A DNA stretch of 64,000 nucleotides from a virus (IMGVR_UViG_3300047472_000449), one strand, 5' to 3'; counted from the stretch's first letter, positions 1 to 37,984 are shown. The notes: generated from the letters alone by a model not told the origin. Numbers and translations are program-made.

Positions 1-118
1 CAAAACCATCAATAAGTGTCAATGTCAGTGACAGCGCTTGTCGCAGTAGAATTGATGGCTTGCGGGAGGGAGTGAGGTGACATACCAACTTAGCGGCCAC
101 CTTTTTAGGCATTTGCGG

Positions 119-361
119 TCAATCTTCGTCCCAGTGGCCGGTCTGACCGACGATGTGCCAATTTCCGCCGTTCGTATACGTCCTGCCGAAGGTGGAGACA
201 TTGAACTGAACACCCACATCGTCTACCAGCGAATAGAGCCCGATGTCTGCATTGATCAGCACTGCCTTGTATGGCGTGGCCAGCGTCAACTGATACTTCC
301 CTTTGGCAGAAGGTGGGTATTTATCGAATACAATTTCAATTTCTGCCAGTCGCAAGCTCAT
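119..361 (-). CDS. hypothetical protein (80 aa)
   Basis: ORF directly downstream of a perfect TTGACA-N17-TATAAT promoter. Confidence 0.65.
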   Translation of the reverse strand: MSLRLAEIEIVFDKYPPSAKGKYQLTLATPYKAVLINADIGLYSLVDDVGVQFNVSTFGRTYTNGGNWHIVGQTGHWDED

Positions 362-397
362 GCTGCTTTACCCTGCCGATCACCATTTAGTGTGATC

Positions 398-436
398 ATT
401 ATAGGGCGAGCAGGCAATATTGTCAATGTCATTTTA
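398..436 (-). promoter_or_regulatory. sigma70 promoter with degenerate palindromic operator
   Basis: TTGACA(426-421)-N17-TATAAT(403-398); GTCAAT GTC ATTTTA at 422-436. Confidence 0.8.
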
Positions 437-476
437 CATTGAGTGTTTTAAGGTTGTACCGGCTCACGCGGGCCAA

Positions 477-1070
477 TTATGCCGCAATGGGCTGGCGCAC
501 GGCGTCGGTGTGTTGAGTGACGTTGACGGCTTTCAGGATCTGATGCGGGAAAAAGGCCCGCATGCTGCCCAAGCCGACATGCTCGTAAAACCAAAGATGC
601 TTAACTTTTTCCATGCGCAGGCGCGCTTGGTTAAAGGGGTTGTGAAGCCACAGCCAAGGCTTGAGCAGGCAGGTACTGGTCTCGCTCTCCTGCACCAGAA
701 CCTCTGTCAGTGGGCGCCCGTAGTTATAGTGCATCTGCCCCAGATCAGCGATGCGCGCTTTGGCTTTGAGGTCGTGGTGATCGGCCATCCAGGCATCCAG
801 AATGCCCTGCCACTGCACCAGCAGCTGCGTAGTGACGTTGGTGGTGCTCAGCTCACTGAGGGCCACCACATGGCGTTCTTCGGAGTGGCCCCAGAGTTCC
901 AGAGTCAACAGGCGGCGCCGGTAACCCAGAACCTTCATTTTGTTGTAGACCACAGTATTTGCTTCAAACGGCAAATGCGGGCACTGGATGGCGATGGCCC
1001 GGTCAAGCAGGACGACCACTTGATGGCTGAGTTGCCAGTTACGCCAGATGCGTGTCAGGGATTTGAACAT
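477..1070 (-). CDS. hypothetical protein (197 aa)
   Basis: long ORF 10 nt downstream of the 1081 gene, operon-like. Confidence 0.7.
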   Translation of the reverse strand: MFKSLTRIWRNWQLSHQVVVLLDRAIAIQCPHLPFEANTVVYNKMKVLGYRRRLLTLELWGHSEERHVVALSELSTTNVTTQLLVQWQGILDAWMADHHDLKAKARIADLGQMHYNYGRPLTEVLVQESETSTCLLKPWLWLHNPFNQARLRMEKVKHLWFYEHVGLGSMRAFFPHQILKAVNVTQHTDAVRQPIAA

Positions 1071-1080
1071 CGTGTTGTCC

Positions 1081-1914
1081 TCAGGAATGACTGACAGGAA
1101 CTACGCTGGCGTTTTCATAGCGACTCGCCAGCGCCGTAGCTGCATTGAACCCGGCTACTACAAACACGGCCTCCGGCTCACCTTTCCGGCGAATCAGCAC
1201 CGCATGCGGCGCACGATGAGAATCCTCGATCCATTGCCCGCCGAACAAATCAGCGGCACGTACATCCCTGTCCTTGTTCACTACCAGCTCTAGGAATTTA
1301 ACGGCCATTTCAACAGGGCTAAGCTTGGAAAGGCTATCGCTATGCCCTTCTGGACGCACTGAGAGTGGTTCGGCCTGGGGGCTTTTCATCAGCGCCTGCT
1401 GATGACCAATAATGTAAGTGTTGATGGCAGCTTGCAGATCCTGATGCTCTGGCAGCAGGCTGTTCAGGACGCGAGAGAGAAGCTCTTGAAGATTCGGCAG
1501 CTCGTAGGCCAGCCTGTCGAGGCGCGGCAATGGCATACGATCAAAAAAATCACGCTGCTGCGCCTCAGTCGGTGGCTTGCCAAATGGCATTAGCTTGGGC
1601 GATGAGCGCATACAGTGATTGATGGCGGCGAAGTACGCATTGGCGAACTTAAACACGTCATCGTGCGAGCGATTTCCATGCAGGTGGTGCTCGACAAACT
1701 CACGGGGGCTCGGTAGAGCCGCAGTTTCGCCTTCAAGGATAGGGCGCATCGTTGATGCCTGCTGCTTGAACAGGTGTGCCATTATCCGGTGCGAATTAAT
1801 GTACGCCACAACCTCTTGCCGGTCTTTGAACTCTTGCATCAGCAGCTCTTCAAGGCTGGGCATTTTGCCCACAATTCCGTCAATTTTCGGCTTGTAAGTG
1901 TAATAGGCGTACAT
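1081..1914 (-). CDS. hypothetical protein, paralog family A
   Basis: start moved to MYAYYTY (GGAG RBS; matches MHPYYTH of paralog 7634); shared C-terminal motif HAVLIRRKGEPEAVFVVAGFNAA. Confidence 0.8.
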   Translation of the reverse strand: MYAYYTYKPKIDGIVGKMPSLEELLMQEFKDRQEVVAYINSHRIMAHLFKQQASTMRPILEGETAALPSPREFVEHHLHGNRSHDDVFKFANAYFAAINHCMRSSPKLMPFGKPPTEAQQRDFFDRMPLPRLDRLAYELPNLQELLSRVLNSLLPEHQDLQAAINTYIIGHQQALMKSPQAEPLSVRPEGHSDSLSKLSPVEMAVKFLELVVNKDRDVRAADLFGGQWIEDSHRAPHAVLIRRKGEPEAVFVVAGFNAATALASRYENASVVPVSHS

Positions 1915-2019
1915 CAATAGCTCCGACTGTGCGGCTTGTTCTGAGGGTTTCATTATACGCCACCCGGCTAAATTGTCAATATGAATTACCATGCGGTGGG
2001 GTGGGCGCCCTCCCCTTGC

Positions 2020-2901
2020 TCAGCCAGAAAACACGATCAGGGTGATGATCATCAGCCCCAGCAACAGGCTGTCACGCAGGTTGTGCGTCTTGTTTTTCTC
2101 GACAATCCACGAATAGCCGTAGCTCACAAAAATGATTCCGACGTTTCTCAGGATGGTGTACGTCTCGATGGCTGAGTGCTTGATGACGTAGCTGCTCAGG
2201 TACAGGGAAATGACAAAACACGCCACGATTTGAGAAATCGGCTTGAGTCGTAAATCGGCTTCTTTGAGGCGTTTATGTTCGCCATTGCTGAGCGCCAACG
2301 TCAGGAAGGTGATGGAGCTGAAGACATTGGCGGCAATCAGGTAATTGATGGCGTTGTATTCTTGCACCATTCTGCCGCCCAGGATGATCGCTATGGAGCC
2401 AAACAGTACGTTGGCGACCAGCAGATCAGCGCGCTTGCAGGTCTTGTTCCTTAGTTTTTTGCTGTAAAACAAAATCGTCAACAGCAACATGCAGCCGACC
2501 ATCGCGTACATGGAATAAGGGCTGTCGTACTGCTCTTTGACGGCGTGTTTGAAGTCAAACAAGTCCGTTAGCAGTGGCGTGAGTATCGGTATGGCTGAGA
2601 TTACGAGGAAGTTCGAGAAATAAAACACCTCCATGTTTTTCTCATTGTGCTTTCGCCCTTCGACTTGAACCATCAGCATGGCCACATTGAAGATCTGGGC
2701 TAAATAAAACCGGTAATCCGATAGAAACGCAAAAGACTCGCTGTCTATTTCATGGCCGTGTGCTGCCAACAAGATGGCTGACGCACACAGGCAAATGATG
2801 ACGGAGCAGGTGTATTTCACACTATAAAATCTGTTCTGTATTTTTTGAATATGAATAGCCAGAATTAGCCCAGCGAAGAGCATTAAATTGACGAGCATCA
2901 T
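2020..2901 (-). CDS. polytopic membrane protein, possibly DMT/EamA-like transporter
   Basis: 293 aa with about 10 hydrophobic segments; AT-rich; family is inference from size and topology. Confidence 0.6.
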   Translation of the reverse strand: MMLVNLMLFAGLILAIHIQKIQNRFYSVKYTCSVIICLCASAILLAAHGHEIDSESFAFLSDYRFYLAQIFNVAMLMVQVEGRKHNEKNMEVFYFSNFLVISAIPILTPLLTDLFDFKHAVKEQYDSPYSMYAMVGCMLLLTILFYSKKLRNKTCKRADLLVANVLFGSIAIILGGRMVQEYNAINYLIAANVFSSITFLTLALSNGEHKRLKEADLRLKPISQIVACFVISLYLSSYVIKHSAIETYTILRNVGIIFVSYGYSWIVEKNKTHNLRDSLLLGLMIITLIVFSG

Positions 2902-3070
2902 CAGCCTGTAGGTTAGAGGAATTCAAGTCTTTGCTTGATTACTTATTATCTCACAAAAGCTTTTGTTCAATTGTCGCTGGAGTGGTTGCGGAAATAGCTC
3001 TTCGTGGTGAGTTACTATCAATTTGAGGTTGCTGATAGATAAAATCTACATAAGTGCTGGCTATGAGCCA

Positions 3071-3098
3071 TTGACACGCATCGACCAATCGCTATGAT
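3071..3098 (+). promoter_or_regulatory. sigma70 promoter of secreted peptide gene 1
   Basis: TTGACA-N16-TATGAT; no upstream operator half-site. Confidence 0.6.
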
Positions 3099-3200
3099 CA
3101 GCACACCAGCCAAGCGCAAACCGGCTGGCCCATTTTCTTAGCAGTTAGCAGGCCCTAAAAACCATGAACACCACTACCTGCTTGAGAAATGGAGATTCAC

Positions 3201-3443
3201 ATGAAATATTCCGTACTGGCTCTGACCCTGGCCCTGTCGATGTCCGCCTCTGCCCTCGCGCTGGCTGAAGAAGCCCCTATCGTCATCAGTGTGGCAGCGA
3301 ACGACGCCAAGCCCGCTGAGGTGGCCTCTCAGGCAACCAATGCGCCTGTTGTGAAGCAGATCACTGCGAAAGCCGAACATCGTTCGCTGTCCGGCGATGC
3401 GACCCGACCAAAAAATCTGAATTGGGATCTGCGCAATCGCTGA
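3201..3443 (+). CDS. secreted peptide 1 of LRNR-tail family (80 aa)
   Basis: GGAG RBS, Sec signal peptide (ALA|EE), ends ATRPKNLNWDLRNR. Confidence 0.85.
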   Translation: MKYSVLALTLALSMSASALALAEEAPIVISVAANDAKPAEVASQATNAPVVKQITAKAEHRSLSGDATRPKNLNWDLRNR

Positions 3444-3461
3444 TCAGCTCCTGCTGATATG

Positions 3462-3493
3462 AAAAAGCCCAAGCAGCGATGCTTGGGCTTTTT
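3462..3493. terminator. bidirectional intrinsic terminator
   Basis: AAAAAGCCCAAGCA-GCGA-TGCTTGGGCTTTTT between convergent genes. Confidence 0.85.
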
Positions 3494-3515
3494 GTTTACG
3501 GTGTATCAATCACTA

Positions 3516-6512
3516 TTAACCGCCACCTTGGCATACGCGGTTGCAGTAGTACGTGCCGGTAGCTTGCTGGTACTTTGGTTGTCCAGAGTAAGCTACGGTT
3601 TCTACGCGGTATGGAACCGCTGGATCGGCTGCCCAGCCACTGCCATTCCATGTGTAGCCAGCCGCGCCACGTTGCTGGTTACGGTAGCAGTAGGCAGTTT
3701 GAGTGAAGACCACGCCTTGGTTGTAGGACGAAGTAGCTGGTGCCCATCCACCACAGCTGTAGAAGTCACCTGCCCAAGCCCACGCTGAGAAATCCATCAG
3801 GTACGTTCTGTAGGTCGGCTGGCTGCCCAGCGTTTGTCCTTCAGCAACGGGGGCACCGACGTTACGATAAGCCCCTGTGTTGGTTTCATACTGACGATCT
3901 TGACGCGTACGGCTTTGGTTGACGTAGCAATAGGCCGTTTGGGTGAACTGCGTGGCAGTGGTGTAATTGCTAGGTGCCGGTGCAAAGGCGCCACAGCTGT
4001 ACAGGCCTGAAGAGTTGGCCCAAGCAGTGTACGTCGGAGTCGTGGCTACCCAGTTTTCTTTAGTGCCGGTTGCAGCACGAGTGCTCGGCTGATTACCCAC
4101 GGTCGTGTTTTCAGCTCTGTAAGGGCTGGCCGAATCCGGTGTCCATGAGCCATTGACCATGTAGTAGCCTGCACGACCACGCTGCATGTTTCTTTGGCAG
4201 TTGCTGGCCGATTGAGTAAATCCAGTACCCATGGTGACCGTGGATGGATCGGGTGACCAGTTGGTGCAGTTGTAAGGGTCACTGCTGAATACCCAGCCGT
4301 TGAAGTCTTCAAGGTAGGCACGGGTGTTGGATTGGCCTGTCGCAGTTTGTGTTTCGGCAACCGGCGACCCGCTATTGCGAATTGCCCCAGTGGTGGTCTC
4401 TGTTTCTCTGTTTTGTCTGCTGCGTGTCTGATCCACACTGCAATTGGTCGCAGTCTGAGTAAACTCTGTGCGTTCCGAGTAGGCGCTTCCCAGCGGTGCC
4501 CAGTTCGAGCAGTTGTACGGCGCTGCTACGTTGGCCCACGCGGTGTAGGCTGGTGTGGTGGCAACCCAAGTTTCCTTCACGCCAGTGGCGGTCTGGGTAT
4601 TGGTTTGACCTGTCAGTGTCTGAGCTTCTCCGGCTACAGTCACAGGTACGGTAGCGCCAGACTTATGATCCACATAGGACTCGGCACGGGTGCGCGTTTG
4701 ATCCTGTTTGCAGTCCGTGGCGGTCTGAGTAAAGCTCTGACCCACAGTGATGGTGGTCGGCGACGGAGACCAGTTCGAACAGGCATACTTGCCGTTGCTG
4801 TTTGTCCATGAACCCAGGGTCACGCTGTAAGTGCGAGTGGCCGACTGAGCGGTCAGGGTTTGGGCTTCAGCAACTACTGCACCTTTGTCACGGATGGCCA
4901 AGGTGGTGGACTCCTGCTCGCGATCCTGACGGTTGCGCGTCTGGTCAGTTTTGCAGTCGGTAGCCGTTTGAGTGAACGAACCTGTCGCCGTTTTGCTGGA
5001 GCCTGCTGGTGACCAGTTGCTGCACGCGTACTGACCGTTGGTGGTTGTCCACGCGGTGTACGTTGGGGTAGTCGCCATCCAGGTTTCTTTGGTGCCGGTC
5101 GCAGTCTGGGTGCTGGTCTGATTGCTCAGGGTTTGGCTTTCAACAGTGTTGCCTGCGGCGACAACAGATCCGGTTTTGTGATCGACATACGACTCAGTGC
5201 GAGCACGTTTTTGATCCTGTTTGCAGTCGGTTGCCGTCTGGGTGAAGCTCTGACCAATGGTGACAGTGGCCGGTGCCGGTGACCAGTTTGAGCAAGCGTA
5301 TTTCGCGCCGTTATCAGCCCAGGCAGCCAAGGTTACTGTGTAGCTGCGTGAGGCCGATTGACCTGTAAGCGTTTGTGCTTCAGCCACCGGAACGCCCTTG
5401 TTGCGGATCTCGCTGGTGTTCTGCTCCATTTCACGATCCTGACGCGTGCGCGCCTGATCGGTGGTGCAGTTGGTCGCGTTCTGCGTGAAAGTGCTGGTAC
5501 TGGTTTTGATCACCGGGTTCGGTGCCCAGTTGGTGCAGGCATTTTGCGCACTGGTATCGACCCAAGCAGTGTAAGTCGGTGTCGTGGCCATCCACTGCTC
5601 AAGCGTACCCGTCGATTCCTTGCTGCTGGCCTGACCGGTCAGCGTGCGGTTCTCGTTGGGCTTGGCTACTGGAACAACCAGATTGCTCTTATTGTCCTTG
5701 TAGGATTCAGCACGAGTACGGGTCTGATCCAGTTTGCAATCAGTGGCGTTCTGGGTGAATTTGATACCCTTGCCGATGGTTTCCACAGCCGGTGACCAGT
5801 TGGTACAGGCATAGCTTTCACCCACAGCTGTCCAGCTACCCAAGGTAACCGAATATGGCCGGGTCGCGGTCTGGCCATTCAGCGTCTGCTGCTCGGTGAT
5901 CGACTCGCCGTTGTTGCGAATTTCGGAGGTGAACTTCTCCTGTTCGCGTTCCTGGCGCTGGCGCTCCTGATCGGTTTTGCAAGTGCTGGAGGTTTGCGTG
6001 AAATTGCTTGTGGTGGAAAAGGTCGAAGGGTTTGGCGACCATGCCGTACAACCGTACAGCGCGTTGGTGTCGATCCAACTGGTGTAGGTCGGTGCAATGC
6101 CCAACCAGTTCTCCAGAATGCCGACCGCATCCCGCGTTGATGAGACGGTAACCTTCTGCTTGATCGTGTATCGAACGCCGTCCTTCACTTCTTCTTTGTT
6201 GATATTGTTCACACGATAATTCTGCGCACCTTTTTCCTGATCCTGAAGGCAGTCGGTCGCAGTTTGTGTGAAAGAAACACCCTTGCCCTGTGAGGACGTG
6301 GAGGGCGACCAGTTTGAACACCCGTACTTGTCGCCCACATCTTCCCACTGATCTTCGTACTTGGTGATCACCGTCCAGTTAGGTGGCAGATCTGACGAAA
6401 TCAGGGTGTAGTTGTAGCGAAATTTACTGGGTGATTCTGTTGCAGTTGCTGCATGGGCTCCCGTGGCGGTAGCGGCCACCAGGAATGCAAGGTGTAACGC
6501 GTGTAACTTCAT
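3516..6512 (-). CDS. secreted Cys/Trp-repeat adhesin-like protein 1 (998 aa)
   Basis: signal peptide MKLHALHLAFLVAATATGAHA; 11 modules with CxNWxP...FTQTATxC...QxRxR; short tip YYCNRVCQGGG. Confidence 0.85.
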   Translation of the reverse strand: MKLHALHLAFLVAATATGAHAATATESPSKFRYNYTLISSDLPPNWTVITKYEDQWEDVGDKYGCSNWSPSTSSQGKGVSFTQTATDCLQDQEKGAQNYRVNNINKEEVKDGVRYTIKQKVTVSSTRDAVGILENWLGIAPTYTSWIDTNALYGCTAWSPNPSTFSTTSNFTQTSSTCKTDQERQRQEREQEKFTSEIRNNGESITEQQTLNGQTATRPYSVTLGSWTAVGESYACTNWSPAVETIGKGIKFTQNATDCKLDQTRTRAESYKDNKSNLVVPVAKPNENRTLTGQASSKESTGTLEQWMATTPTYTAWVDTSAQNACTNWAPNPVIKTSTSTFTQNATNCTTDQARTRQDREMEQNTSEIRNKGVPVAEAQTLTGQSASRSYTVTLAAWADNGAKYACSNWSPAPATVTIGQSFTQTATDCKQDQKRARTESYVDHKTGSVVAAGNTVESQTLSNQTSTQTATGTKETWMATTPTYTAWTTTNGQYACSNWSPAGSSKTATGSFTQTATDCKTDQTRNRQDREQESTTLAIRDKGAVVAEAQTLTAQSATRTYSVTLGSWTNSNGKYACSNWSPSPTTITVGQSFTQTATDCKQDQTRTRAESYVDHKSGATVPVTVAGEAQTLTGQTNTQTATGVKETWVATTPAYTAWANVAAPYNCSNWAPLGSAYSERTEFTQTATNCSVDQTRSRQNRETETTTGAIRNSGSPVAETQTATGQSNTRAYLEDFNGWVFSSDPYNCTNWSPDPSTVTMGTGFTQSASNCQRNMQRGRAGYYMVNGSWTPDSASPYRAENTTVGNQPSTRAATGTKENWVATTPTYTAWANSSGLYSCGAFAPAPSNYTTATQFTQTAYCYVNQSRTRQDRQYETNTGAYRNVGAPVAEGQTLGSQPTYRTYLMDFSAWAWAGDFYSCGGWAPATSSYNQGVVFTQTAYCYRNQQRGAAGYTWNGSGWAADPAVPYRVETVAYSGQPKYQQATGTYYCNRVCQGGG

Positions 6513-6760
6513 AGCGCACCTTATAGGTTTAATGGCTTTTATTATCGCTACAATAATATCACGCAAAGCGAAGGAATTACTGATTAAACGGTTAACTGTT
6601 GATTTATTTTTACGTAAAACACAAAACTTCTTTACGAAATGAACAATAGTCCTTAATGATAATTGATTCGCATCAATTATCTGATTTTTGTCGTCTTGTA
6701 GTAGCGTGACTTTCTGTCATTTTAAGCCGTCTCTTTGATAACAACTCAAAGGAGTGGGTC

Positions 6761-7009
6761 ATGAACTTATGGCTTGTTGTGACGGTGTTAACAGCGGTTT
6801 TGAGGGCGACGAAAATCGAATCCATGGGAATGCGACACATCACGTGGTGCGTGGTTGCCCTGTGCCTTGCATTGTCCGTGGTGACTGCGGTTTTCGCATT
6901 GAACGCAGCCGGTCAGGCATTACTGATACCGGTGACCGTGGGGTTGGCGCTAACCTTGATGCTGATCGGCTACTTGGGCTATCTGTGCGGTGGTCTCAGC
7001 AGGCTCTAG
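6761..7009 (+). CDS. small membrane protein (paralog of 8654..8899)
   Basis: AAGGAG RBS, hydrophobic helices, MNLW start shared with paralog. Confidence 0.75.
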   Translation: MNLWLVVTVLTAVLRATKIESMGMRHITWCVVALCLALSVVTAVFALNAAGQALLIPVTVGLALTLMLIGYLGYLCGGLSRL

Positions 7010-7034
7010 TGGCAGAGCCTGCAAGCGGCACGGA

Positions 7035-7361
7035 TTATTGACCGGCGTGATCGATGTAAAAGGTGATCGGTGAGTGGTCGCTATTGCGGTAGGCATCACA
7101 GATCTGCTTGAGTTGTTCGCCGGAAGGTCTGGAAATGACCGTGCCCAGTCGGTCAATGTCCTGCCAGTCGAACTGCTCCCTGAACCATTGCATCCAGAAC
7201 TCAGGCTCTTCTGCTTTACGACGCGCCAGCATCGAATCAGCTTCAGCATCATCAATGTCATGTTGTGTCTTAAGCAAAGCGCGAAAGTCCGACCAGATGG
7301 CGTCGGCAGTGATTTCAAACACGCTGCCGCAAGGCGATTTCAAACGAAGTTTTTCACTCAT
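7035..7361 (-). CDS. hypothetical protein
   Basis: ATGA overlap with the upstream gene's stop codon. Confidence 0.7.
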   Translation of the reverse strand: MSEKLRLKSPCGSVFEITADAIWSDFRALLKTQHDIDDAEADSMLARRKAEEPEFWMQWFREQFDWQDIDRLGTVISRPSGEQLKQICDAYRNSDHSPITFYIDHAGQ

Positions 7362-7624
7362 GAGGCTTTTTGCTCCTGATCGATATCCAGTAGGTAGGCG
7401 AATTCGCCGGGATAATGAATCGGGCTGAATTCCCATTTCCAGCCTTGCTCTCCAGAATCCTTGCCCCAAGCATTGAGGCGCAGCTTCACAGGCGGTTGAG
7501 TGCCCTGTTCCACTTCAATGGTCAGCGCATTAAACAGTCCGCAGTGCTCATCGCTGATGATGATACCTTGGCGCCCATCGTCATGACGCATGGCGGCGCC
7601 TTTAAGATTTTTTACGTCAGACAT
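7358..7624 (-). CDS. hypothetical protein (88 aa)
   Basis: translationally coupled in operon 8482->7035. Confidence 0.65.
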   Translation of the reverse strand: MSDVKNLKGAAMRHDDGRQGIIISDEHCGLFNALTIEVEQGTQPPVKLRLNAWGKDSGEQGWKWEFSPIHYPGEFAYLLDIDQEQKAS

Positions 7625-7633
7625 ATTGATCCC

Positions 7634-8482
7634 TCACTGTTTGCTGGCGGGAATAATGATGGTGGTGGTGTCGCCTTCCAGGGTTGCTGCCAGATCAGCC
7701 GCTGCCTTGTAGCCAGTGGTGACATAAGCACGATCATCCTTACCTTCACGGCGCACCAGCACCACATGAGGCTCACTGTCGAACTGGTGTCGCAGGGCTA
7801 GACCAAACATGTCTGCGAATATGTCGGCTTTTGCCTCACCAAACTCATCTGCAAAAAACTGGAAAACCAACTCGCGAAAACTGGCGCCATTACTGAAGTC
7901 ACCGGTGAAATTGGGCTCCAGGGTAAATGGATCAAGGGACGGTGAGTCAGTCATGGTTTGAAAGTGGTTGGCAAAATAGTCGCTGACCGCTTGGTGGTTG
8001 GCTGTACTTTCGCCAGACCAGCGTTTTTGCAAAGCTACGGCAATGTCAAAAAGTGAAACCCGCGCCGCGAAACCAGTAACTGGGGGGTTGAAGCTGTAGT
8101 AATCCCGACGAGCATGCCCCGGTGGCCCAAAGGGTTCGGGCTCGGAAGCCATGGCTTTATCCAGCTGCTCAAAATACTGAGTGGTGTATTTGGCCGCATT
8201 GTTGAAGATGAACACGTCACCTTCGGCGTTCGCTTGAATGTAACCCTCGACCAGTTGGAAGGGCGAGAGGTTGCCGTTCTTCGCCAGCCAATTCCCGGCC
8301 CTGGGGCGCAGCATTTTTTCATCCACTTGTGGGTATCGAGCCGAAACACGGTGATCATCGATGTAATCACATACCTTTTGCTGGTCGCCTTCAAAGAACA
8401 GATTGAGCAGGTTTTCAAGACTTGGAACCGGGTCGCTGCCAAGAACCTTCACCATCGGTTGGTGAGTGTAATAAGGGTGCAT
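7634..8482 (-). CDS. hypothetical protein, paralog family A
   Basis: AAGGAG RBS before MHPYYTH; motifs PSLENLL, DPFTLEPN..SFRELV, HVVLVRREGKDDRAYVTTGYKAA. Confidence 0.8.
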   Translation of the reverse strand: MHPYYTHQPMVKVLGSDPVPSLENLLNLFFEGDQQKVCDYIDDHRVSARYPQVDEKMLRPRAGNWLAKNGNLSPFQLVEGYIQANAEGDVFIFNNAAKYTTQYFEQLDKAMASEPEPFGPPGHARRDYYSFNPPVTGFAARVSLFDIAVALQKRWSGESTANHQAVSDYFANHFQTMTDSPSLDPFTLEPNFTGDFSNGASFRELVFQFFADEFGEAKADIFADMFGLALRHQFDSEPHVVLVRREGKDDRAYVTTGYKAAADLAATLEGDTTTIIIPASKQ

Positions 8483-8519
8483 GAAAACTCCTTTCATCGA
8501 CATCGACTGGTATCGTTGA

Positions 8520-8558
8520 ATTATACCCACCAGCCACGTATTTGTCAATATGAATGAC
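8520..8558 (-). promoter_or_regulatory. sigma70 promoter + operator
   Basis: TTGACA-N17-TATAAT; GTCAAT ATG AATGAC at 8544-8558. Confidence 0.85.
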
Positions 8559-8653
8559 TGCACCACCCAAGAATTTGACCATTTAATAATGTGTAGTGTG
8601 ACGAAAGATCGGCATTGTCCGTCTACTGATAAACATGACAAAAAGGGATTTAC

Positions 8654-8899
8654 ATGAATCTTTGGTTTTGGGCAGCTGTTCTGACGACAATTTTTCGCGT
8701 TTTTAAACTTGAGCCCCTTGGGATCAAAGGGCTGTCGTGGCTGGTGATCGCTTTTTGCTTGATCCTGGCCGGTGTCACCGCCCTCTTCTCTTTTGGCATT
8801 CTGGGTCAGATCCTGCTGGTGCCGGTATTTATCGGTCTGATCTACGCGTTGTTTGCAGCGGGCATGATGTTTCGTCTTTTTGGCCGAAACCGCTATTAA
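8654..8899 (+). CDS. small membrane protein (paralog of 6761..7009)
   Basis: hydrophobic helices, MNLW start. Confidence 0.75.
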   Translation: MNLWFWAAVLTTIFRVFKLEPLGIKGLSWLVIAFCLILAGVTALFSFGILGQILLVPVFIGLIYALFAAGMMFRLFGRNRY

Positions 8900-8900
8900 C

Positions 8901-9422
8901 TCAGGGGAATTCGCGAGCTACCTGATGAATTATTGCTTGTGGTTCATCGGCCTTGTACTTCTCCAGAAAGTAATCCCGGAAGTTTTCTGCATTTTTCTCC
9001 CCAATAATCAGGTGCGCCGTGGTGGTCATGACCATTGAGCGTACATTGACGATGTACGGCTCCCAGTCCATTGCGTTCCTGATCGCCTGTTCGTATGCCT
9101 GACGATAGCTGTCAGGGTATTCATGCTTGGTTCTGTACACAGCCTGGATGATCTCTCTGAGGCTGTTTTTACCGTGTTTTTTTACTTCAAGGACATTGGG
9201 CCGCAGATCAAACGGATCGTCCATAGGGCGAGCCCGTAGAAGCCGCTGGTGTTGCTCCAGATAGTCTTTGACGGCGCTGTTCACAAACTCGGCTTTGACG
9301 CGACCGCTGAAAAACACCAACACCATTTTCTTGATGGAGTTTTCGGGGATTGGATGCTTCTTGAACAGGGGTTCATGGGTGTAAAAATCACACAAGGATT
9401 CCCAAGCTTCAATTTTGCTCAT
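8901..9422 (-). CDS. hypothetical protein, distant member of paralog family A
   Basis: DDPFDLRPN...SLREIIQAVY motif. Confidence 0.75.
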   Translation of the reverse strand: MSKIEAWESLCDFYTHEPLFKKHPIPENSIKKMVLVFFSGRVKAEFVNSAVKDYLEQHQRLLRARPMDDPFDLRPNVLEVKKHGKNSLREIIQAVYRTKHEYPDSYRQAYEQAIRNAMDWEPYIVNVRSMVMTTTAHLIIGEKNAENFRDYFLEKYKADEPQAIIHQVAREFP

Positions 9423-9486
9423 GATGATTAATTACTCTTTGTTTATCCTATTTTTAGCAAGGCTGGTGAGCTTTGCTTTTTGTTCA

Positions 9487-9876
9487 TCACTTAGAATTCT
9501 GGCCTGATTTATCAGCAACGCCGATGAGCTTTGCCTTTTGTTCAGCTGTCAAAAGTTTTAATAGTTGCTTATCACTGGAAAAAACTTTCGCTACATTGTC
9601 TTTCTCAGAATCATGCTCAGCTTTTGACACCAAGATGGACATACAATCAAGCCGTGGCGTTCCGCCATCCAAGCATTCTATCAGCGGGGTAAGCACTTTT
9701 TTGTTTAATTCAGATTGCTGGCTTGCCTTCTCAATATCCTTATCAATAGCAATGTTGTTGGTAAGATTAAAGACAGCCAAACACCCTGTTAGGATGAGCA
9801 AGGCCATCGAGAATGTCATTATTAAATCATGATTTATAAATCCATTAGACCGGCTCTTAACGTGCATATGTAGCAT
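9487..9876 (-). CDS. membrane-anchored hypothetical protein
   Basis: N-terminal hydrophobic helix, AT-rich. Confidence 0.6.
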   Translation of the reverse strand: MLHMHVKSRSNGFINHDLIMTFSMALLILTGCLAVFNLTNNIAIDKDIEKASQQSELNKKVLTPLIECLDGGTPRLDCMSILVSKAEHDSEKDNVAKVFSSDKQLLKLLTAEQKAKLIGVADKSGQNSK

Positions 9877-10083
9877 CCTAAAAATAAAACAATGATCACA
9901 TATGCGCGCAACTAATGCGACAATAATTTAGTGGAATTCACAGTCTTGAATTACTTTGAATAGATTCCTAACGCCCCCTCTTCGAGGGAATAAGCCAGCC
10001 GGTGCTTGCGCCTCTTCCCCGCACCTGTGAACGAAAAAAGGAGAGCCGTAGCTCTCCTATTATCCGATCACACTGGTGAGTGG

Positions 10084-10608
10084 TTAGAGCACTGGCAGAA
10101 TGTCTTCAATGGCTTTGATGCGAACCGCAGGAGGGGCTTTTCCAGCTGCATCGGTCTTGCTGAAGCAGGCCGCGACTTCCAGGGCTTCGCCTTGGCCGGT
10201 CACGAGGTACATCCGCTCAGCATCGCCCTCACCCACGATCACCGCATAACGACGATTGTCGATCAGCGCTGCGCCCCAGAGCTTGAAATACTCCTCGGCG
10301 AGTTCGGCGGTTTCTTCCGGACTGAAGAACTTCGCGTACATCTTGGCAACCAGCTCACGCAACGAGGGATCTCTGCCCGACTCGACCTTGCCGACTTGAG
10401 GTTGCAGCAACAGCGGGTCGGTGGTCGGATCGCTGAGCATTTCCATTGTGTGCTGGGCGATGTACTGGTCACGCAGCTTTTCAGCCTCGGGAGCGTCAAA
10501 ATGCTCGGCGTAATAACGGTAAATCACACTGGCCAATGACTGCTCGGAGGTGTTGAACCGGGCAAATTGAGGCTCGATGGTAAAGAATGGTGCGACGGCT
10601 TGCGACAT
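10084..10608 (-). CDS. hypothetical protein, paralog family A
   Basis: DPLLLQP...PSLRELVAKMY and YAVIVGEGDAERMYLVTGQGEA motifs. Confidence 0.8.
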   Translation of the reverse strand: MSQAVAPFFTIEPQFARFNTSEQSLASVIYRYYAEHFDAPEAEKLRDQYIAQHTMEMLSDPTTDPLLLQPQVGKVESGRDPSLRELVAKMYAKFFSPEETAELAEEYFKLWGAALIDNRRYAVIVGEGDAERMYLVTGQGEALEVAACFSKTDAAGKAPPAVRIKAIEDILPVL

Positions 10609-10622
10609 GGTGTTGATCCTTT

Positions 10623-10883
10623 TTACCGTTGGGCAGCAGCGACAGTTGAGGTTTTAGCATCGCTTGGCGGCGGGTACACGCCAAAACGGGTCAGCGACGG
10701 CATCAGGCGATGAGTGACCCAGCGTTGGTGGTCGCGACTCAGGTCATCAAAGCGACCTTCTTGCATGCACTTGTTGATGCGCTGAATGTCCAGCTCGCAA
10801 GGCTCTGCACCGTCGTAATGAGGCATTGGTGAGCCTGCAATGGCGCTGGCCACGTCAGGAGGCAGAAGAGGATTGTCGCGCAT
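10623..10883 (-). CDS. hypothetical protein (86 aa)
   Basis: ORF in co-directional run. Confidence 0.6.
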   Translation of the reverse strand: MRDNPLLPPDVASAIAGSPMPHYDGAEPCELDIQRINKCMQEGRFDDLSRDHQRWVTHRLMPSLTRFGVYPPPSDAKTSTVAAAQR

Positions 10884-10948
10884 GCTGGATGTCCTGCGTC
10901 GTTGTGGTATTAGAGCAGGCCCGACAATAGGGCCTGCTTAACGGTGCG

Positions 10949-11281
10949 TTACTGGGCCTGGGTTTGCGCGGGTTCAGCTTCTGGCGCCAGCTCATCCTCA
11001 ATATCGACGTAGCCGATCCACAGGATTTCGTGAAGGGCGTCCCAGAAGTCTTTGCTGATGGCCAAGTCGCTGGCGCCACCTTCAATAAAGCCCTTCTGGC
11101 GCCAGTCGCTGAGAATGGTGCGTTCATCGGCGTTGATCTTGCGCGGGTCGATGTTCTGGCCGTTCATGATGAGCGACTGGATGTAAGGCATCAGACGCAG
11201 TTCACGTTGGGTGATTTCGTAACCCAGCAATACTCGGGTTTTGGCCTTAATGGCGTCAGTCAATTGTCCGCGTTTTGCCAT
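10949..11281 (-). CDS. phage/plasmid-type hypothetical protein
   Basis: ELRLMPYIQ...IEGGAS...KDFWD motif; perfect promoter at 11320-11348. Confidence 0.75.
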   Translation of the reverse strand: MAKRGQLTDAIKAKTRVLLGYEITQRELRLMPYIQSLIMNGQNIDPRKINADERTILSDWRQKGFIEGGASDLAISKDFWDALHEILWIGYVDIEDELAPEAEPAQTQAQ

Positions 11282-11387
11282 GATCTTCACCTTTCCCAGT
11301 AAATTCTGAATATGGGTCTATTATAGCGCCGCAACCCGTGATTGTCAATCACAGAAACACTTCCTTGGGCTTTTCCTGCCCCAACAA

Positions 11388-11417
11388 AAAATCCCCGGTC
11401 ACAAGACCGGGGATTTT
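11388..11417. terminator. intrinsic terminator after peptide cluster
   Basis: AAAATCCCCGGTC-ACAA-GACCGGGGATTTT. Confidence 0.85.
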
Positions 11418-11433
11418 CGACGCCGAGGCGGTA

Positions 11434-11871
11434 TTAGCGGTTGCGAAGATCAGCTTCCAGGTTTTTGGGCTTGGTCGCATCACTGGCGACTACGCCGCTG
11501 GCAGCATCGGTGGTAACTTTGCCGGACAGTGGGCGTGGAATGTCAGGGGTGCCAGGGGCTTTCACTTCGCCAGTCGGTGCCGGGCCGGTGGGAGTTGGCG
11601 CGGTTTTGCCGGATGCAGCGGCGGTGGCTGCGGACTTGGTTGGAGCAGCTTTCGCGGATGCGGCGGTTTTGACCGGTGCAGCTTTGGCGGTTGCGGCGGC
11701 TTTGGCTGGTGCAGCCTTGGTCGATGCGACTTTTTCGACCGGTGCAGCTTTGGCCGAAATAGCAGTTTCAACCGGTGCGACAGCGGTGGCTTTTTCTTGA
11801 GCCATGGCGTTCACCGACAGGCCGGACAGCGCTACGGCCATCGCGAGGATCAGGGAGTATCGTTGTTTCAT
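11434..11871 (-). CDS. secreted peptide 2 of LRNR-tail family (145 aa, Ala/Lys/Pro/Thr-rich linker)
   Basis: signal peptide AMA|QE; ends ATKPKNLEADLRNR. Confidence 0.85.
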   Translation of the reverse strand: MKQRYSLILAMAVALSGLSVNAMAQEKATAVAPVETAISAKAAPVEKVASTKAAPAKAAATAKAAPVKTAASAKAAPTKSAATAAASGKTAPTPTGPAPTGEVKAPGTPDIPRPLSGKVTTDAASGVVASDATKPKNLEADLRNR

Positions 11872-11956
11872 GTATTTCTCCAGTCAGGTAATCAGGTTTT
11901 GTTGCCTTCGCCCCCGTTCAACGGGGGCGATCAGGCGGGTGGCCGAGGCGGCGGAA

Positions 11957-12175
11957 TTAACGGTTACGCAGTTCCCAGTCCAGGTTTTTCGGACGAGTCG
12001 AGCGAGGCGATTGCGATGGCGAGGTGCTGGTTGCTTTCGGGGTGGCATCAGTGGTCGCTTGCGACGCATCTTTTGCAGTTTGGACAGCGACCGGTTCTTT
12101 CGGTTGATCTGCGGCCACGGCGGCAACGGAGACAGCGGACAGCGACAGCGCCAGAACGAGTGCCAACTTTTTCAT
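11957..12175 (-). CDS. secreted peptide 3 of LRNR-tail family (72 aa)
   Basis: signal peptide; ends STRPKNLDWELRNR. Confidence 0.85.
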   Translation of the reverse strand: MKKLALVLALSLSAVSVAAVAADQPKEPVAVQTAKDASQATTDATPKATSTSPSQSPRSTRPKNLDWELRNR

Positions 12176-12216
12176 GTGTATCTCCAGGGTCAGAACAGTT
12201 TTTTCTTTGATGGTTT

Positions 12217-12255
12217 ATTATGATGCTTCTTTTACTATTTGTCAATAGCATTTAC
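12217..12255 (-). promoter_or_regulatory. sigma70 promoter + operator (peptide 3)
   Basis: TTGACA-N17-CATAAT; GTCAAT AGC ATTTAC at 12241-12255. Confidence 0.8.
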
Positions 12256-12312
12256 TGCTATTTGTCGCTTCGACCTGCTCACACTTTTGTGGGCAGGCCA
12301 AAGGCGATGGGA

Positions 12313-12471
12313 TTAGCGGTTACGCAGTTCCCAGTCCAGATTCGCCGGACGGGTCGCGGTGACCGAAGGGGATTTGGCGGTAACGCCAGCTTTCGGCTGA
12401 TCAGCGGCCATCGAGACAGCGGAAACGGCGGACAGCGACAGAGCCAGAACGAGTGCCAGAGTCGATTTCAT
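12313..12471 (-). CDS. secreted peptide 4 of LRNR-tail family (52 aa; absent from ORF track)
   Basis: manual translation MKSTLALVLALSLSAVSAVSMAADQPKAGVTAKSPSVTATRPANLDWELRNR; GGAG RBS; own promoter 12514-12542. Confidence 0.85.
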   Translation of the reverse strand: MKSTLALVLALSLSAVSAVSMAADQPKAGVTAKSPSVTATRPANLDWELRNR

Positions 12472-12615
12472 GTGAATCTCCATTGCGTGACAGGATGTTT
12501 GCTTTGATGGTTTATTATGGCGATTCTTTTACTAATTGTCAATCTTATTTACATTTGTTTTTTGAGACATTGGCCCGCCTCACTCACTGGTGAGGCAGGC
12601 CAAAGGCCGTGGGGT

Positions 12616-12774
12616 TTAGCGGTTACGCAGTTCCCAGTCCAGGTTCGACGGGCGGGTCGCGGTGACCGAAGGGGACTTGGCGGTAGCGGTGGCCGAGGTT
12701 TTCACAGCTTCACCTGCCATCGCAACGGCGGACAGGGACATTGCCACAACAACAGCCAGTACGGTACGTTTCAT
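12616..12774 (-). CDS. secreted peptide 5 of LRNR-tail family (52 aa; absent from ORF track)
   Basis: manual translation MKRTVLAVVVAMSLSAVAMAGEAVKTSATATAKSPSVTATRPSNLDWELRNR; GGAG RBS; own promoter 12806-12834. Confidence 0.85.
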   Translation of the reverse strand: MKRTVLAVVVAMSLSAVAMAGEAVKTSATATAKSPSVTATRPSNLDWELRNR

Positions 12775-12921
12775 GTGAAGCTCCATTTGCTTGGTTTGTG
12801 GGGTTATTATAAGTATCTATACCATGATTGTCAATCATATTTTCATTATTATTTGAATATTTATCTACCCGCCACTAAAGCAATCCACGGCCACACGTCC
12901 ACCCGACTCCCCCATTGATTG

Positions 12922-13718
12922 AGGTAAGAAATTTGACCACAGGATTACGAGCGCAGCGATTTTTCGCGTCCTGGCGGTAGGGAGTTTGGCGGCAAATCAG
13001 CACTTTTAGTCGCTAAACGACCACTTTTTCAGCTAAACCCCGATGGTCAGTGGCGTCATCACGCAGGTAAGAAATTTCACCAAGATTCGACCATAAGCCA
13101 ATGTTTACAGGGGTTGTACGTGATAGGGGCGTATAGCAAGCCGGTCTAAATCTCCTGATTCATCTCACCCTGGGCGACCTTCATGGTGAGGATCGCCCCC
13201 CTGTAAATGGCATTATTCAGGTAGAAATGCCCAATAACTGCCAGAATATTAGCACTCAGCCATAGGCTTTGGCTTTTCATACAGCGCCAGCACCTGATCG
13301 ATCTCGGAAAACCATGCGTCCATTCGGCAGTAGTCTTTGGACTTGCGCATGTCCTTAACCAGCTCCACCAGCCGTGGATTGGCAGCGGTCAGGTACACAA
13401 CCTCAGTTTTGAGGTTGATAATGGTTTGTTCGTGTTTGTGGGTCAGGGCTCGCCATTTATTCTTCGCGTCGGCTTCCTCGGCAGTTTTCGCTTCATACAC
13501 TGCCTTGGCCTTCATCCAGACCTCAAGCTGATTCGTGAGAGCTTCAGTGCTTTCGGTTCGAATGCCCCGAGCCTTGGTCAGGTAGCATTGGTTGACGTGA
13601 CTCCATTGGGCGTAGGGCTTCGCCGGGTATACGGCTTCGAATTCCTCAAGGTCTTGTTCGGTCATCGGTGGCTCGCTTAAAGATTGAATTGCGTCGAATT
13701 CAGGTATGAAATTTCACC
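12922..13718. repeat. three dispersed copies of 17-bp AGGTA(A/T)GAAATTT(G/C)ACC
   Basis: copies at 12922-12938, 13065-13081, 13702-13718. Confidence 0.7.
13249..13665 (-). CDS. hypothetical protein (138 aa)
   Basis: ORF with plausible RBS; helical composition. Confidence 0.65.
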   Translation of the reverse strand: MTEQDLEEFEAVYPAKPYAQWSHVNQCYLTKARGIRTESTEALTNQLEVWMKAKAVYEAKTAEEADAKNKWRALTHKHEQTIINLKTEVVYLTAANPRLVELVKDMRKSKDYCRMDAWFSEIDQVLALYEKPKPMAEC

Positions 13719-13781
13719 CTGATTTGAAAAATAACTAACTCTCAGCGGCTACCCTTTCCAGCAGCCGCTGAGGATTGGGTG

Positions 13782-14543
13782 TCAGGCGGCGTCTGGCGTC
13801 CAGTTGACCGCCTTGTCGAAGTCCTCTTGACTCATTTGCACGCCGACCCGGCAAACGCGCAGAAAAGCGTTACGAGCTTCCTCGGCGGTGGCGTTCTCGA
13901 TCAAAGTTACGACGGTCTGCGCATTGCGAAAGGCATTGGTGCATTGGTCGTGAAGCTTGATGAACGCTTCGATTTCAGCGCTATCCGCCCCAGCCTTTTC
14001 CCACTCGTTCCAGCGCTGGCGCAGCAGTTGATTGATGGTGTGGTTGCCGCTGTCGCAAAAGGGCAGCAGTGACCAAGCTGGCAACCGAAAGCCGACATCG
14101 GCCTCTTCGGCAGGCACAAACATCATGCGCTGCTCCTTGCTGTCCAGCACCAAACGCTGACCGGCCAGCCATGTCGAGGATTCTTCGGTACTCATGCCTT
14201 CGAACAGCGGCAGACCCGCAAAGTCCCTTACCATCATCCAGGCCAGTGTTGCCATGCGGTTCTGCCCGTCCAGCAGCAGGCCCACAGCGCCACGATCACC
14301 CTCTTTAGGGCCTGTCAGCGGGCCGAGGCGTCCTTTCGAGACCTTGTTCAGATCCGCCTTGTTGCCCGGCTCCCACAGCACAAAGCCGCCGATAGGGAAA
14401 TTCGACAGAATTGAATCGCACAGACTTTCCACGTCGTCCTTGATCCAGACATAGGGCCGTTGCATGGCGGCAGGTTGCATGCGACCTGCCGCACAGTCTT
14501 CGATCATGCTGGACAGGTACGGCGTGCTCTGGCGAATTCGCAT
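13782..14543 (-). CDS. stand-alone DUF262 (GmrS/SspE N-terminal, ParB-like fold) domain protein
   Basis: QRPYVW, FPIGGFVLW and LLDGQNR motifs; no HNH C-terminal domain; exact start uncertain. Confidence 0.8.
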   Translation of the reverse strand: MRIRQSTPYLSSMIEDCAAGRMQPAAMQRPYVWIKDDVESLCDSILSNFPIGGFVLWEPGNKADLNKVSKGRLGPLTGPKEGDRGAVGLLLDGQNRMATLAWMMVRDFAGLPLFEGMSTEESSTWLAGQRLVLDSKEQRMMFVPAEEADVGFRLPAWSLLPFCDSGNHTINQLLRQRWNEWEKAGADSAEIEAFIKLHDQCTNAFRNAQTVVTLIENATAEEARNAFLRVCRVGVQMSQEDFDKAVNWTPDAA

Positions 14544-36367: not shown

Positions 36368-37984
36368 TTACATTTTGCAGAGTTGCCAGATGGTGTTTGC
36401 AGAAACCACGGCACCCCGGTAGTAGGTTGCACCACCATAAGTCATCTGTGTATCTTGCCCTTGTCTGGTGTAAACCACAGAGCCGTTCAAATAGACGATG
36501 GTGTGCATGTTGTGATCCATCAACATCTGATACGTCCACTGGGTATTACCGGCGACATATTGGCAGGTGCTTTTTGTTCCTGTTGCTTGCTGCGTCACGT
36601 ACTGATTGGCCAGAGTTTGCGTTTCTGTCCTGTACGGCACAGCAGGGTCAGGCACCCATCCGCCGTTGTAGGTGTACCCTGCTGCGCCACGTTGTTGGTT
36701 GATGTAGCAATAGGCCGCTTGTGTAAACACGGTTCCAGCATTCACGGTTGAAACATCTGGGCTCCACGCCGAACAGCTGTAATAGCCGCTGGAGTTTGCC
36801 CAAGCTGTGAAGTCCATCAGGTAGGTTCTGGTGGTGGGCTGGCTACCAAGTGTCTGGCTTTCAGCGACAGGCACACCCACATTGCGGATGGCACCTGTGT
36901 AGGTTTCAGACTCGCGATCCTGACGGGTGCGGCTCTGATTGACGGAGCAATAGGCTGTTTGATTGAACTGCGTAGCCGTTGTGTAAGCGGCTGGTGACGG
37001 CGAATAAGTGCCGCAGCCGTAAAGTCCTGACGAGTTGGCCCAGGCCGTATAAACCGGCGAGGTCGCGACCCATGTTTCCATCGTGCCGGTGGCATCCTGG
37101 CTATTGCCCTGATTGGTCAGTGTGCGGTTTTCATTAGCTACCCCCACCGACACAACCTGATTGGTCAGGTGGTCTTTGTACGATTCGGCGCGGGTGCGTG
37201 TCTGGTTCAATTGGCAGTCAGTGGCAGTCTGCGTGAACTTCAGTCCTTTGCCGACAGTTTCAACAGCGGGTGACCAGTTGGCGCATTGGTACGCCCCGCC
37301 TACCGCAGTCCAGTCGCCCAGTGTAACCGTGTAGGGTCGGGTGGCGGTCTGACTGTTCAGGGTCTGCTGTTCTGTTACTGATGCGCCATTGTTGCGAATT
37401 TCCGACGTGAATTTCTCCTGTTCGCGCTCCTGGCGCTGGCGCTCCTGATCGGTTTTACAGGTGCTGGATGTCTGAGTGAAATTGGTCGTTGCGGTGTATG
37501 TCGAAGGGTTTGGCGACCATGCTGTACAGCCGTACAGAGGGTTGGTGTCGATCCAGCTGGTATAGGTCGGTGCAATACCCAGCCAGTTTTCTAGAATACC
37601 GACTGCATCGCGTGTCGCTGACACGGTGATGGTGCGTTTAATGGTGTAGCGTGGCCCGTCTTTGACTTCTTGATTATTAATATTGTTGACACGGTAATTC
37701 TGGGCGCCCTTTTCCTGATTTTGTTGGCAGTCAGTGGCGGTTTGAATAAAGGACACGCCCTTGCCCTGAGAGGCAGTGGACGGTGACCAGTTTGAGCAAC
37801 CGTATTCGTCGCCAACATCCTCCCAATTGTCTTCATACTTGGTGATTCCCTTCCAGTTGGGCGGGACTTGTGAGGAAACTAGGGTGTAATTGTAGCGGAA
37901 ATTTCCCTGATGCTCTGTTTCTGCATAAGCGCCTGTGGCTGTAGTAGCCACGAGTAAGGCGAGTGCTAGGGTGATTCTTTTCAT
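36368..37984 (-). CDS. secreted Cys/Trp-repeat adhesin-like protein 2 (538 aa)
   Basis: signal peptide; 5 modules; distinct C-terminal tip domain bounded by two Cys. Confidence 0.85.
   Translation of the reverse strand: MKRITLALALLVATTATGAYAETEHQGNFRYNYTLVSSQVPPNWKGITKYEDNWEDVGDEYGCSNWSPSTASQGKGVSFIQTATDCQQNQEKGAQNYRVNNINNQEVKDGPRYTIKRTITVSATRDAVGILENWLGIAPTYTSWIDTNPLYGCTAWSPNPSTYTATTNFTQTSSTCKTDQERQRQEREQEKFTSEIRNNGASVTEQQTLNSQTATRPYTVTLGDWTAVGGAYQCANWSPAVETVGKGLKFTQTATDCQLNQTRTRAESYKDHLTNQVVSVGVANENRTLTNQGNSQDATGTMETWVATSPVYTAWANSSGLYGCGTYSPSPAAYTTATQFNQTAYCSVNQSRTRQDRESETYTGAIRNVGVPVAESQTLGSQPTTRTYLMDFTAWANSSGYYSCSAWSPDVSTVNAGTVFTQAAYCYINQQRGAAGYTYNGGWVPDPAVPYRTETQTLANQYVTQQATGTKSTCQYVAGNTQWTYQMLMDHNMHTIVYLNGSVVYTRQGQDTQMTYGGATYYRGAVVSANTIWQLCKM

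Follow-up and report, generated by a model that had tools for sequence, protein, structure and literature searches.

Why would a giant replicon encode several small, apparently secreted proteins that vary along most of their length and all end in the same few residues? The question is raised by a stretch of DNA of 64,000 nucleotides (nt) that is recorded as viral (IMGVR_UViG_3300047472_000449; the whole stretch is called the window below). Five of its genes, here copies B to F, form together with a sixth member lying upstream, copy A, what we call the LRNR family, after the residues that precede the stop codon. Our answer is a tentative one, to which we give a probability of roughly 45%: these exported, disordered mini-proteins may act as high-dose docking peptides in the bacterial envelope by means of their C-terminal tail.

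A conserved tail on predicted exported proteins of variable length

The five window genes that a first-pass annotation had placed at 3201, 11434, 11957, 12313 and 12616 are real, and their coordinates, their lengths and the stop codon directly after LRNR were all verified (Table 1). All six copies share one architecture, in which a Sec/AxA signal peptide comes first, then an Ala/Thr/Pro/Lys linker that is disordered and differs in length between members, and last the terminal tail. The consensus of the tail over the six copies is T[RK]PxNL[DEN][WAL][DE]LRNR, with the stop codon immediately after it, and the residues N, L, L, R, N and R are invariant. The LRNR end described in the first-pass annotation was thus borne out, but the Trp position is broader than described there and can be W, A or L. 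The annotation had also held that the members share only a 13-residue tail, which proved too narrow: homology extends to the signal peptides, which are 49-64% identical in the aligned columns, and conservation at the C-terminus covers about 21 amino acids (aa), [ST]LSG..[AS]T[RK]PxNL.W.LRNR.

As the annotation had stated, a Sec-type signal peptide can be recognized on each member. The N-termini consist of Lys/Arg, a hydrophobic core of 12-17 residues and an AxA site ahead of an acidic residue, and this n/h/c pattern with its AxA site was found in all of them by our own rule-based sequence scan, which was used rather than SignalP. The predicted mature proteins measure 30, 32, 51, 58 and about 121 aa, and are basic (isoelectric point, pI, 8.5-10) and hydrophilic. 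AlphaFold2 models of copy B (12 sequences) and copy E (18 sequences) agree in having a signal-peptide helix (residues 3-13 in copy B), a disordered middle segment with a predicted local distance difference test score (pLDDT) below 50, and a tail helix, which spans residues 73-79 at a pLDDT of about 85 in copy B and residues 45-50 at about 80 in copy E. Because the two Leu residues of the tail lie four apart and the last Arg three further on, these three residues would share one helical face. In the ESM-Atlas, the closest clusters comprise small secreted proteins from Pseudomonadota, with scores below 0.9 that make them a lead only.

In the long-linker member, copy C, a 33-nt (11-codon) tandem repeat of 3.3 copies at 11620-11754 encodes AKAAP-type units. 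Linkers of orthologs vary through insertions and deletions and through this repeat, and the tail remains at the extreme end. Since the orthologs show insertions and deletions at the 33-nt repeat, the linker of copy C is changing in length by repeat slippage.

Purifying selection on the peptide, concentrated in its C-terminal block, is well supported by comparison of the gene sequences, because the ratio of nonsynonymous (pN) to synonymous (pS) differences is low in the tail and because the tail has been kept in a relative of 25% GC content despite codon change. Over the 13 tail codons of the window paralogs, pS is 0.57 and pN is 0.15, in agreement with the earlier claim that synonymous codon differences point to selection on the peptide. 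The orthologs on four related contigs give a pN/pS of 0.13 for the tail, compared with 0.42 for the linker and 0.44 for the signal peptide.

The low-GC relative, P0010, is a protein of 56 aa found by an exhaustive scan with a profile hidden Markov model (HMM), and it is encoded on a contig of 131,678 bp with 25% GC (Logan SRR25078857; L006/L017). Nineteen of its last 21 residues are the same as in a member of 59% GC, and the third codon positions differ at 16 of these 21. As its GC content at third codon positions (GC3) is 17.5%, the gene is evidently fully adapted to its genome and a long-standing resident there. A comparison of the contig with about 88 kb of the replicon (tblastx, phmmer) found no other shared genes. 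The P0010 gene is accompanied by a TTGACA-17-TATAAT promoter, an AATGGAG ribosome-binding site (RBS) and a terminator, and in both elements the LRNR gene is a self-contained promoter-to-terminator unit amid unrelated neighbours. The same contig also carries a series of paralogous genes, each encoding about 260 aa, an ADP-ribosylglycohydrolase gene, a gene with a SocA/Panacea domain and a phage-like RNA ligase gene with 35-37% identity to jumbo-phage genes.

The first-pass annotation had proposed the free C-terminal peptide as the functional unit. This fits the stop codon directly after the tail, the constraint on the tail and its survival at 25% GC.

Self-contained cassettes, partly multiplied in tandem

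Promoter-like sites that match 11-12 of 12 consensus positions lie 5' of four of the five window genes, one more than the three that had been credited with a promoter of their own. The 145-aa gene (copy C) is the only window member without such a site, and it comes after the 72-aa gene (copy D). Each window gene has an RBS of sequence AATGGAG or CTGGAG located 6-7 nt 5' of an ATG-AAA start. A strong hairpin follows the stop codon of every window copy (z between -3.7 and -6.5) and is accompanied by U-runs after copy B and after the four-gene array formed by the other copies. Within this array copies D, E and F are evidently the products of a 303-bp tandem duplication that took in promoter, RBS, open reading frame (ORF) and hairpin. 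Copy F and the upstream copy A differ at 6 of 159 nt. When all six frames of the window were searched with a regular expression, LRNR directly before a stop turned up in one further frame, which is unrelated, and an Rfam scan of window positions 1-14000 with E up to 0.1 found no RNA families.

The sequence ATTGACAAT seen at two of the promoter-like sites is the -35 hexamer inside a short palindrome. It occurs 19 times in the window, mostly on the minus strand, against 0.73 expected occurrences, which fits a promoter/operator set used throughout the replicon; examples are found at 419-427, 1972-1980, 11341-11349, 12535-12543 and 12827-12835.

Table 1. Positions of the LRNR genes, their signals and the adjoining or related repeat genes (window coordinates unless another contig is named)
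Feature	Position	Strand	Details
LRNR copy A	L018:9898-10056		sixth family member, 24.6 kb upstream; convergent on a repeat gene
LRNR copy B, 80 aa	3201-3443	+	predicted signal peptide ending ALA, followed by EE; disordered linker; tail ...RSLSGDATRPKNLNWDLRNR
LRNR copy C, 145 aa	11434-11871	-	long-linker member; tail ATKPKNLEADLRNR; without own promoter
LRNR copy D, 72 aa	11957-12175	-	tail STRPKNLDWELRNR; orthologs P0001-P0005
LRNR copy E, 52 aa	12313-12471	-	predicted mature protein of about 30 aa; tail ATRPANLDWELRNR
LRNR copy F, 52 aa	12616-12774	-	tail ATRPSNLDWELRNR
Promoter-like site of copy B	3071..3098	+	TTGACA-16-TATGAT; 11/12 consensus positions
Promoter-like site of copy D	12217..12245	-	TTGACA-17-CATAAT; consensus scan
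Promoter-like site of copy E	12514..12542	-	ATTGACAAT at -35; consensus scan
Promoter-like site of copy F	12806..12834	-	perfect TTGACA-17-TATAAT; ATTGACAAT at -35; consensus scan
Hairpin and U-run terminator	3461..3494		between copy B and the convergent 998-aa repeat gene; -33.1 kcal/mol, z -6.0
Intrinsic terminator	11385..11433	-	end of the four-gene array; 14-bp stem and U6, z -6.1
Tandem cassette repeat	12097..12787	-	spans copies D, E and F; promoter, RBS, ORF and hairpin; period 303, 76-80% matches
Cys/Trp-repeat gene, 998 aa	3516-6512	-	convergent with copy B
Cys/Trp-repeat gene	36368-37984	-	modules of about 85 aa
Cys/Trp-repeat gene	38241-41411	-	modules of about 85 aa
Cys/Trp-repeat coding region	L018 6001-9746		modules of about 85 aa

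Distribution and place among known families

From a word-indexed search of 5.8 billion proteins we obtained seven clusters, and from the exhaustive profile HMM scan of 1.84 billion representative proteins five. More than 20 members are now known, every one of them ending in L-R-N-R and then a stop, and the four-gene array is kept in four related contigs. Scans of the peptides against Pfam, NCBIfam, PADLOC and PHROGs gave no matches above threshold, the sub-threshold ones being only to the signal peptide or to composition, so that the earlier impression that no described family could be recognized held. The annotation had also proposed a tblastn and HMM search of plasmids and phages. No relatives were found among PLSDB plasmids, INPHARED phages and complete E. 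coli genomes (DNA and tblastn searches, E up to 10), and the HMM search assigned the peptides to no known family. Motif scans of IMG/VR, of the JGI metagenome contigs and of 185,579 species genomes found no relatives either, which excludes a conserved host protein that carries the exact motif NL[DN]W[ED]LRNR. The sole locus confirmed in the motif scans, L005 in an archaeal metagenome-assembled genome (MAG), has no matching ORF and was set aside as a chance match. No longer or fused forms of the family were found, a negative that is weak because a 9-aa match cannot be significant in that search, and a full-text literature search for the tail motif returned nothing relevant. Going by these comparisons, the family belongs to no described family and can be placed, as a new one, in the broad class of exported proteins whose action lies in a C-terminal peptide.

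A putative docking peptide of the bacterial envelope

In the reading that we favour, Sec-exported mini-proteins of 30 to about 121 aa after removal of the signal peptide would be produced mostly from their own strong promoter-RBS-ORF-hairpin cassettes. Their working part would be the C-terminal 13-21 residues, which would finish in a short helical stretch, NL-x-x-x-LRNR, whose carboxylate is free, and would dock on some conserved part of the envelope of Gram-negative bacteria; the linker, which varies, would do no more than provide flexible spacing. With six copies behind near-consensus promoters the dose would be high and stoichiometric, and because of this dose the target would likely be occupied, that is, blocked, titrated or activated, and an envelope function altered to the benefit of the element. 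We infer that the target is a conserved host component rather than a plasmid-encoded one, since the cassette occurs on its own in two genomic contexts that are unrelated to each other.

Several points weigh against this proposal. Export and signal-peptide cleavage are predictions made from sequence rules alone, and the terminal helix of the AlphaFold2 models rests on a shallow alignment of 12-18 sequences. That two copies adjoin Cys/Trp-repeat genes hints at a partner borne by the plasmid rather than by the host. Finally, the family is restricted to a handful of metagenome contigs, and this rarity makes its general importance uncertain.

Control of envelope proteases, sensors and export machines through short docking peptides at the C-terminus of exported proteins is a known mechanism, but few such peptides are known from mobile elements. 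Here, a giant and almost uncharacterised replicon devotes six strong transcription units to one peptide of 13-21 residues. Such a peptide could serve as an affinity probe, and its partner would reveal an envelope component manipulated by very large plasmids and give a first functional foothold in a class of replicons of about 1 Mb that consist mostly of unknown genes.

The proposed mode of action is close to that of MucE and of the outer-membrane protein (OMP) C-termini that activate AlgW and DegS, in that the function of a small protein, here predicted to be Sec-exported, is placed in the residues at its free C-terminus. MucE and the LRNR family also probably overlap in host range, the replicon being of Pseudomonas type. 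However, AlgW and DegS PDZ domains read C-termini of the form hydrophobic residue-x-hydrophobic residue, such as the WVF and YxF ends of MucE and OMP signals, whereas the LRNR family ends in the polar, basic L-R-N-R. It also differs from MucE in its conserved block of 13-21 aa that is predicted to be helical, and there is no sequence similarity between the two. The comparison with MucE and the AlgW PDZ domain drawn in the first-pass annotation is weakened by this R-N-R end, which lacks the hydrophobic terminus that those domains read. The genes also recall T4 Spackle, Cor and PagK, small periplasmic proteins by which mobile elements bring about exclusion or take over the host. These too are exported products of autonomous 'moron'-style cassettes built for strong expression, but they are folded or lipidated, unlike the disordered LRNR proteins with their terminal motif, and the matches to them are weak and confined to the signal peptide (E 0.004-0.3).

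Other readings of the same genes place the partner elsewhere or do without one. The tail might dock on the replicon's own secreted Cys/Trp-repeat (TSP1-like) proteins as a cap, an adaptor or an assembly inhibitor, the two gene sets then forming one functional pair. This would fit the convergence of copy B on the 998-aa repeat gene across a single terminator, an arrangement in which the ortholog of copy B on contig L009 has the same neighbour, as well as the convergence of copy A on the third of three tandem repeat genes. Both gene sets are predicted to be Sec-exported, and two of the three peptide loci lie beside a repeat locus, for which we estimate a random-placement probability of about 0.01. 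A segmental duplication of the pair would, however, inflate this count of adjacencies, and the four-gene array does not lie next to the R538/R1056 pair. The Pseudomonas megaplasmid pMPPla107 matches the repeat family at seven places and no LRNR gene was found on it, the 31 kb read around the low-GC relative hold no repeat protein, and the tail HMM scores the repeat proteins at E 3.5 or worse. We consider this pairing unlikely, although it ranks first among the alternatives. Ranking after it, and improbable in our judgement, is the idea that the proteins have a general protective role in the periplasm, as disordered basic chaperones like Asr or as stress buffers, and that the polar RNR end mainly shields them from periplasmic proteases directed at the C-terminus. 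The enterobacterial acid-shock protein Asr (NCBIfam NF033636) has the same succession of a signal peptide and an Ala/Thr/Pro/Lys-rich, disordered basic chain and is the best library match, albeit a sub-threshold one: four of the five proteins match this model weakly over the signal peptide and the linker (best E 1.6e-4, 22.4 bits). The basic, hydrophilic character of the mature peptides fits this idea too, and the tail-specific protease Prc prefers non-polar C-termini. But all Asr scores (12-22 bits) are far under the cut-off of 50 bits and reflect composition; the match does not take in the LRNR tail, and Asr, which contains His/Lys repeats, lacks a conserved motif at its C-terminus. The strongest constraint on the LRNR proteins falls on a specific sequence of 13-21 aa rather than on composition, and a stability cap would not need nine near-invariant residues across 25% to 59% GC.

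The tail could also be an address rather than an effector, a tag for sorting or handling that is recognised by machinery of secretion, of outer-membrane vesicles or of modification, perhaps an enzyme of the kind acting on ribosomally synthesized and post-translationally modified peptides (RiPPs). Such a tag would look like what is seen here, exported proteins that vary elsewhere and are conserved at their extreme C-terminus. Yet a single small family carries it, no larger cargo protein with this end was found in the window or the other loci read, and a tag without cargo makes little sense on a mature peptide of 30 aa. In PEP-CTERM, GlyGly-CTERM and LPXTG proteins the motif is followed by a transmembrane segment and a basic cluster; both are absent here, where the stop codon follows the motif directly. 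Pfam searches found no exosortase, rhombosortase or sortase families among the window ORFs, no radical-SAM, YcaO, sortase or peptidase genes nearby, and no RiPP-modifying enzymes (radical SAM, YcaO, lanthipeptide synthetase and the like) in the neighbours and the 81 window ORFs. Sec signal peptides are, besides, atypical for RiPP leaders, and we regard the tag as quite unlikely. Still further down we place the possibility that the genes encode pro-peptides of a diffusible signal of the Phr/AimP type, whose C-terminal fragment would be clipped off in the periplasm, enter cells through porins and be read by a receptor of the replicon. As in Phr of Bacillus and AimP of arbitrium phages, which are mobile-element-encoded pre-pro-peptides of 40-60 aa, pro-peptides of 52-56 aa carry a signal peptide and have their conserved part at the extreme C-terminus. 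A tetra- or pentapeptide would be near the size limit of porins (by our calculation, about 557 Da for LRNR), and the genes are part of a replicon-wide promoter set. On the other hand, Phr and AimP act in Gram-positives, sit beside an RRNPP receptor gene and are lineage-specific, whereas an outer membrane stands in the way of the LRNR peptides and their tail is invariant. Pfam found no TPR or RRNPP-type domain among the 81 window ORFs or the neighbours of the six copies and of P0010; one protein with a faint TPR match lies about 7 kb away and has no link to the peptides. Private peptide signals diversify and those of the Phr/AimP type are 5-10 aa long, but here a tail that hardly varies among six paralogs and recurs in an unrelated element leaves no private channel, the conserved block of 13-21 aa has a predicted helix, and no processing site is evident. 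The Phr/AimP analogy suggested in the first-pass annotation loses weight for want of a receptor-type gene among the window ORFs and because of the invariance and length of the tail, and such a signal seems to us very unlikely. We hold least probable of all a variant in which the LRNR tail or a clipped fragment of it would be a peptide signal of giant plasmid-like replicons in Gram-negative bacteria, made in the periplasm, exchanged between cells through porins or on lysis and read by the global repressor circuit of the replicon; if true, it would be the first Phr- or arbitrium-like peptide communication in diderms and one shared between unrelated elements.

The replicon and the Cys/Trp-repeat neighbours

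The 72-aa protein, copy D, is also encoded on JGI contig Ga0495643_0000001 (1,136,430 bp), of which a stretch of 4.2 kb is 100% identical to the window; the window corresponds to about positions 812,394-876,393 of this contig. Contigs of more than 1.13 Mb that bear the same genes occur in three samples. The replicon has a GC content of 52.7% and is composed almost wholly of ORFans, with almost no Pfam matches in the window. Scanning the window for tRNA genes and for capsid, terminase and portal families found none, and with the contig extending over 1.14 Mb we dropped the idea that the replicon is a phage; it is more likely a megaplasmid-like element. In size and GC content it resembles pMPPla107, which measures 971,889 bp at 52.84% GC (Table 1 of PMC6482414). 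Megaplasmids of that family are about 1 Mb long at about 53-55% GC, consist mostly of hypothetical genes and share a syntenic core. The Cys/Trp-repeat family is the only one found in common between the DNA read here and pMPPla107, two other window proteins having no match there, and membership of the replicon in the pMPPla107 megaplasmid family is plausible.

Between the LRNR loci, two genes at 6761-7009 (+) and 8654-8899 (+) encode paralogous proteins of 81-82 aa that have the look of three transmembrane segments and both start MNLW. Each sits between cytoplasmic genes that are themselves paralogous, 7634-8641 being related to 1081-1992 and 8901-9422 to 10084-10608. Because the MNLW genes and the cytoplasmic genes that flank them form paralogous pairs, their arrangement suggests that a multi-gene block has been duplicated between the LRNR loci.

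The repeat proteins are large and predicted to be Sec-exported. Modules about 85 aa long, W...C-x2-WSP...FTQT..C..Q-x-R-x-R, alternate along them and match Pfam TSP1_2 faintly. More than 145 relatives were found in Pseudomonas assemblies, contigs of 0.88-1.14 Mb, a Hafnia MAG and Vibrio plasmids of 300-370 kb, and all are annotated as hypothetical. The tail-to-tail arrangement of copies A and B, each with one of these secreted proteins' genes, is a lead only. The tail and the repeat module both contain TATRP and ..RNR, but the tail was rejected as a piece or mimic of the module, as its HMM scores the repeat proteins at background. No small convergent ORF follows the repeat gene of pMPPla107, and a 52-aa gene beside a repeat gene in a contig of P. 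syringae pv. actinidiae proved unrelated. Beside the repeat-protein genes of the window, two lipoproteins of 181 aa with LSGC/LAGC lipoboxes are encoded in tandem at 41727-42272 (-) and 42440-42985 (-).

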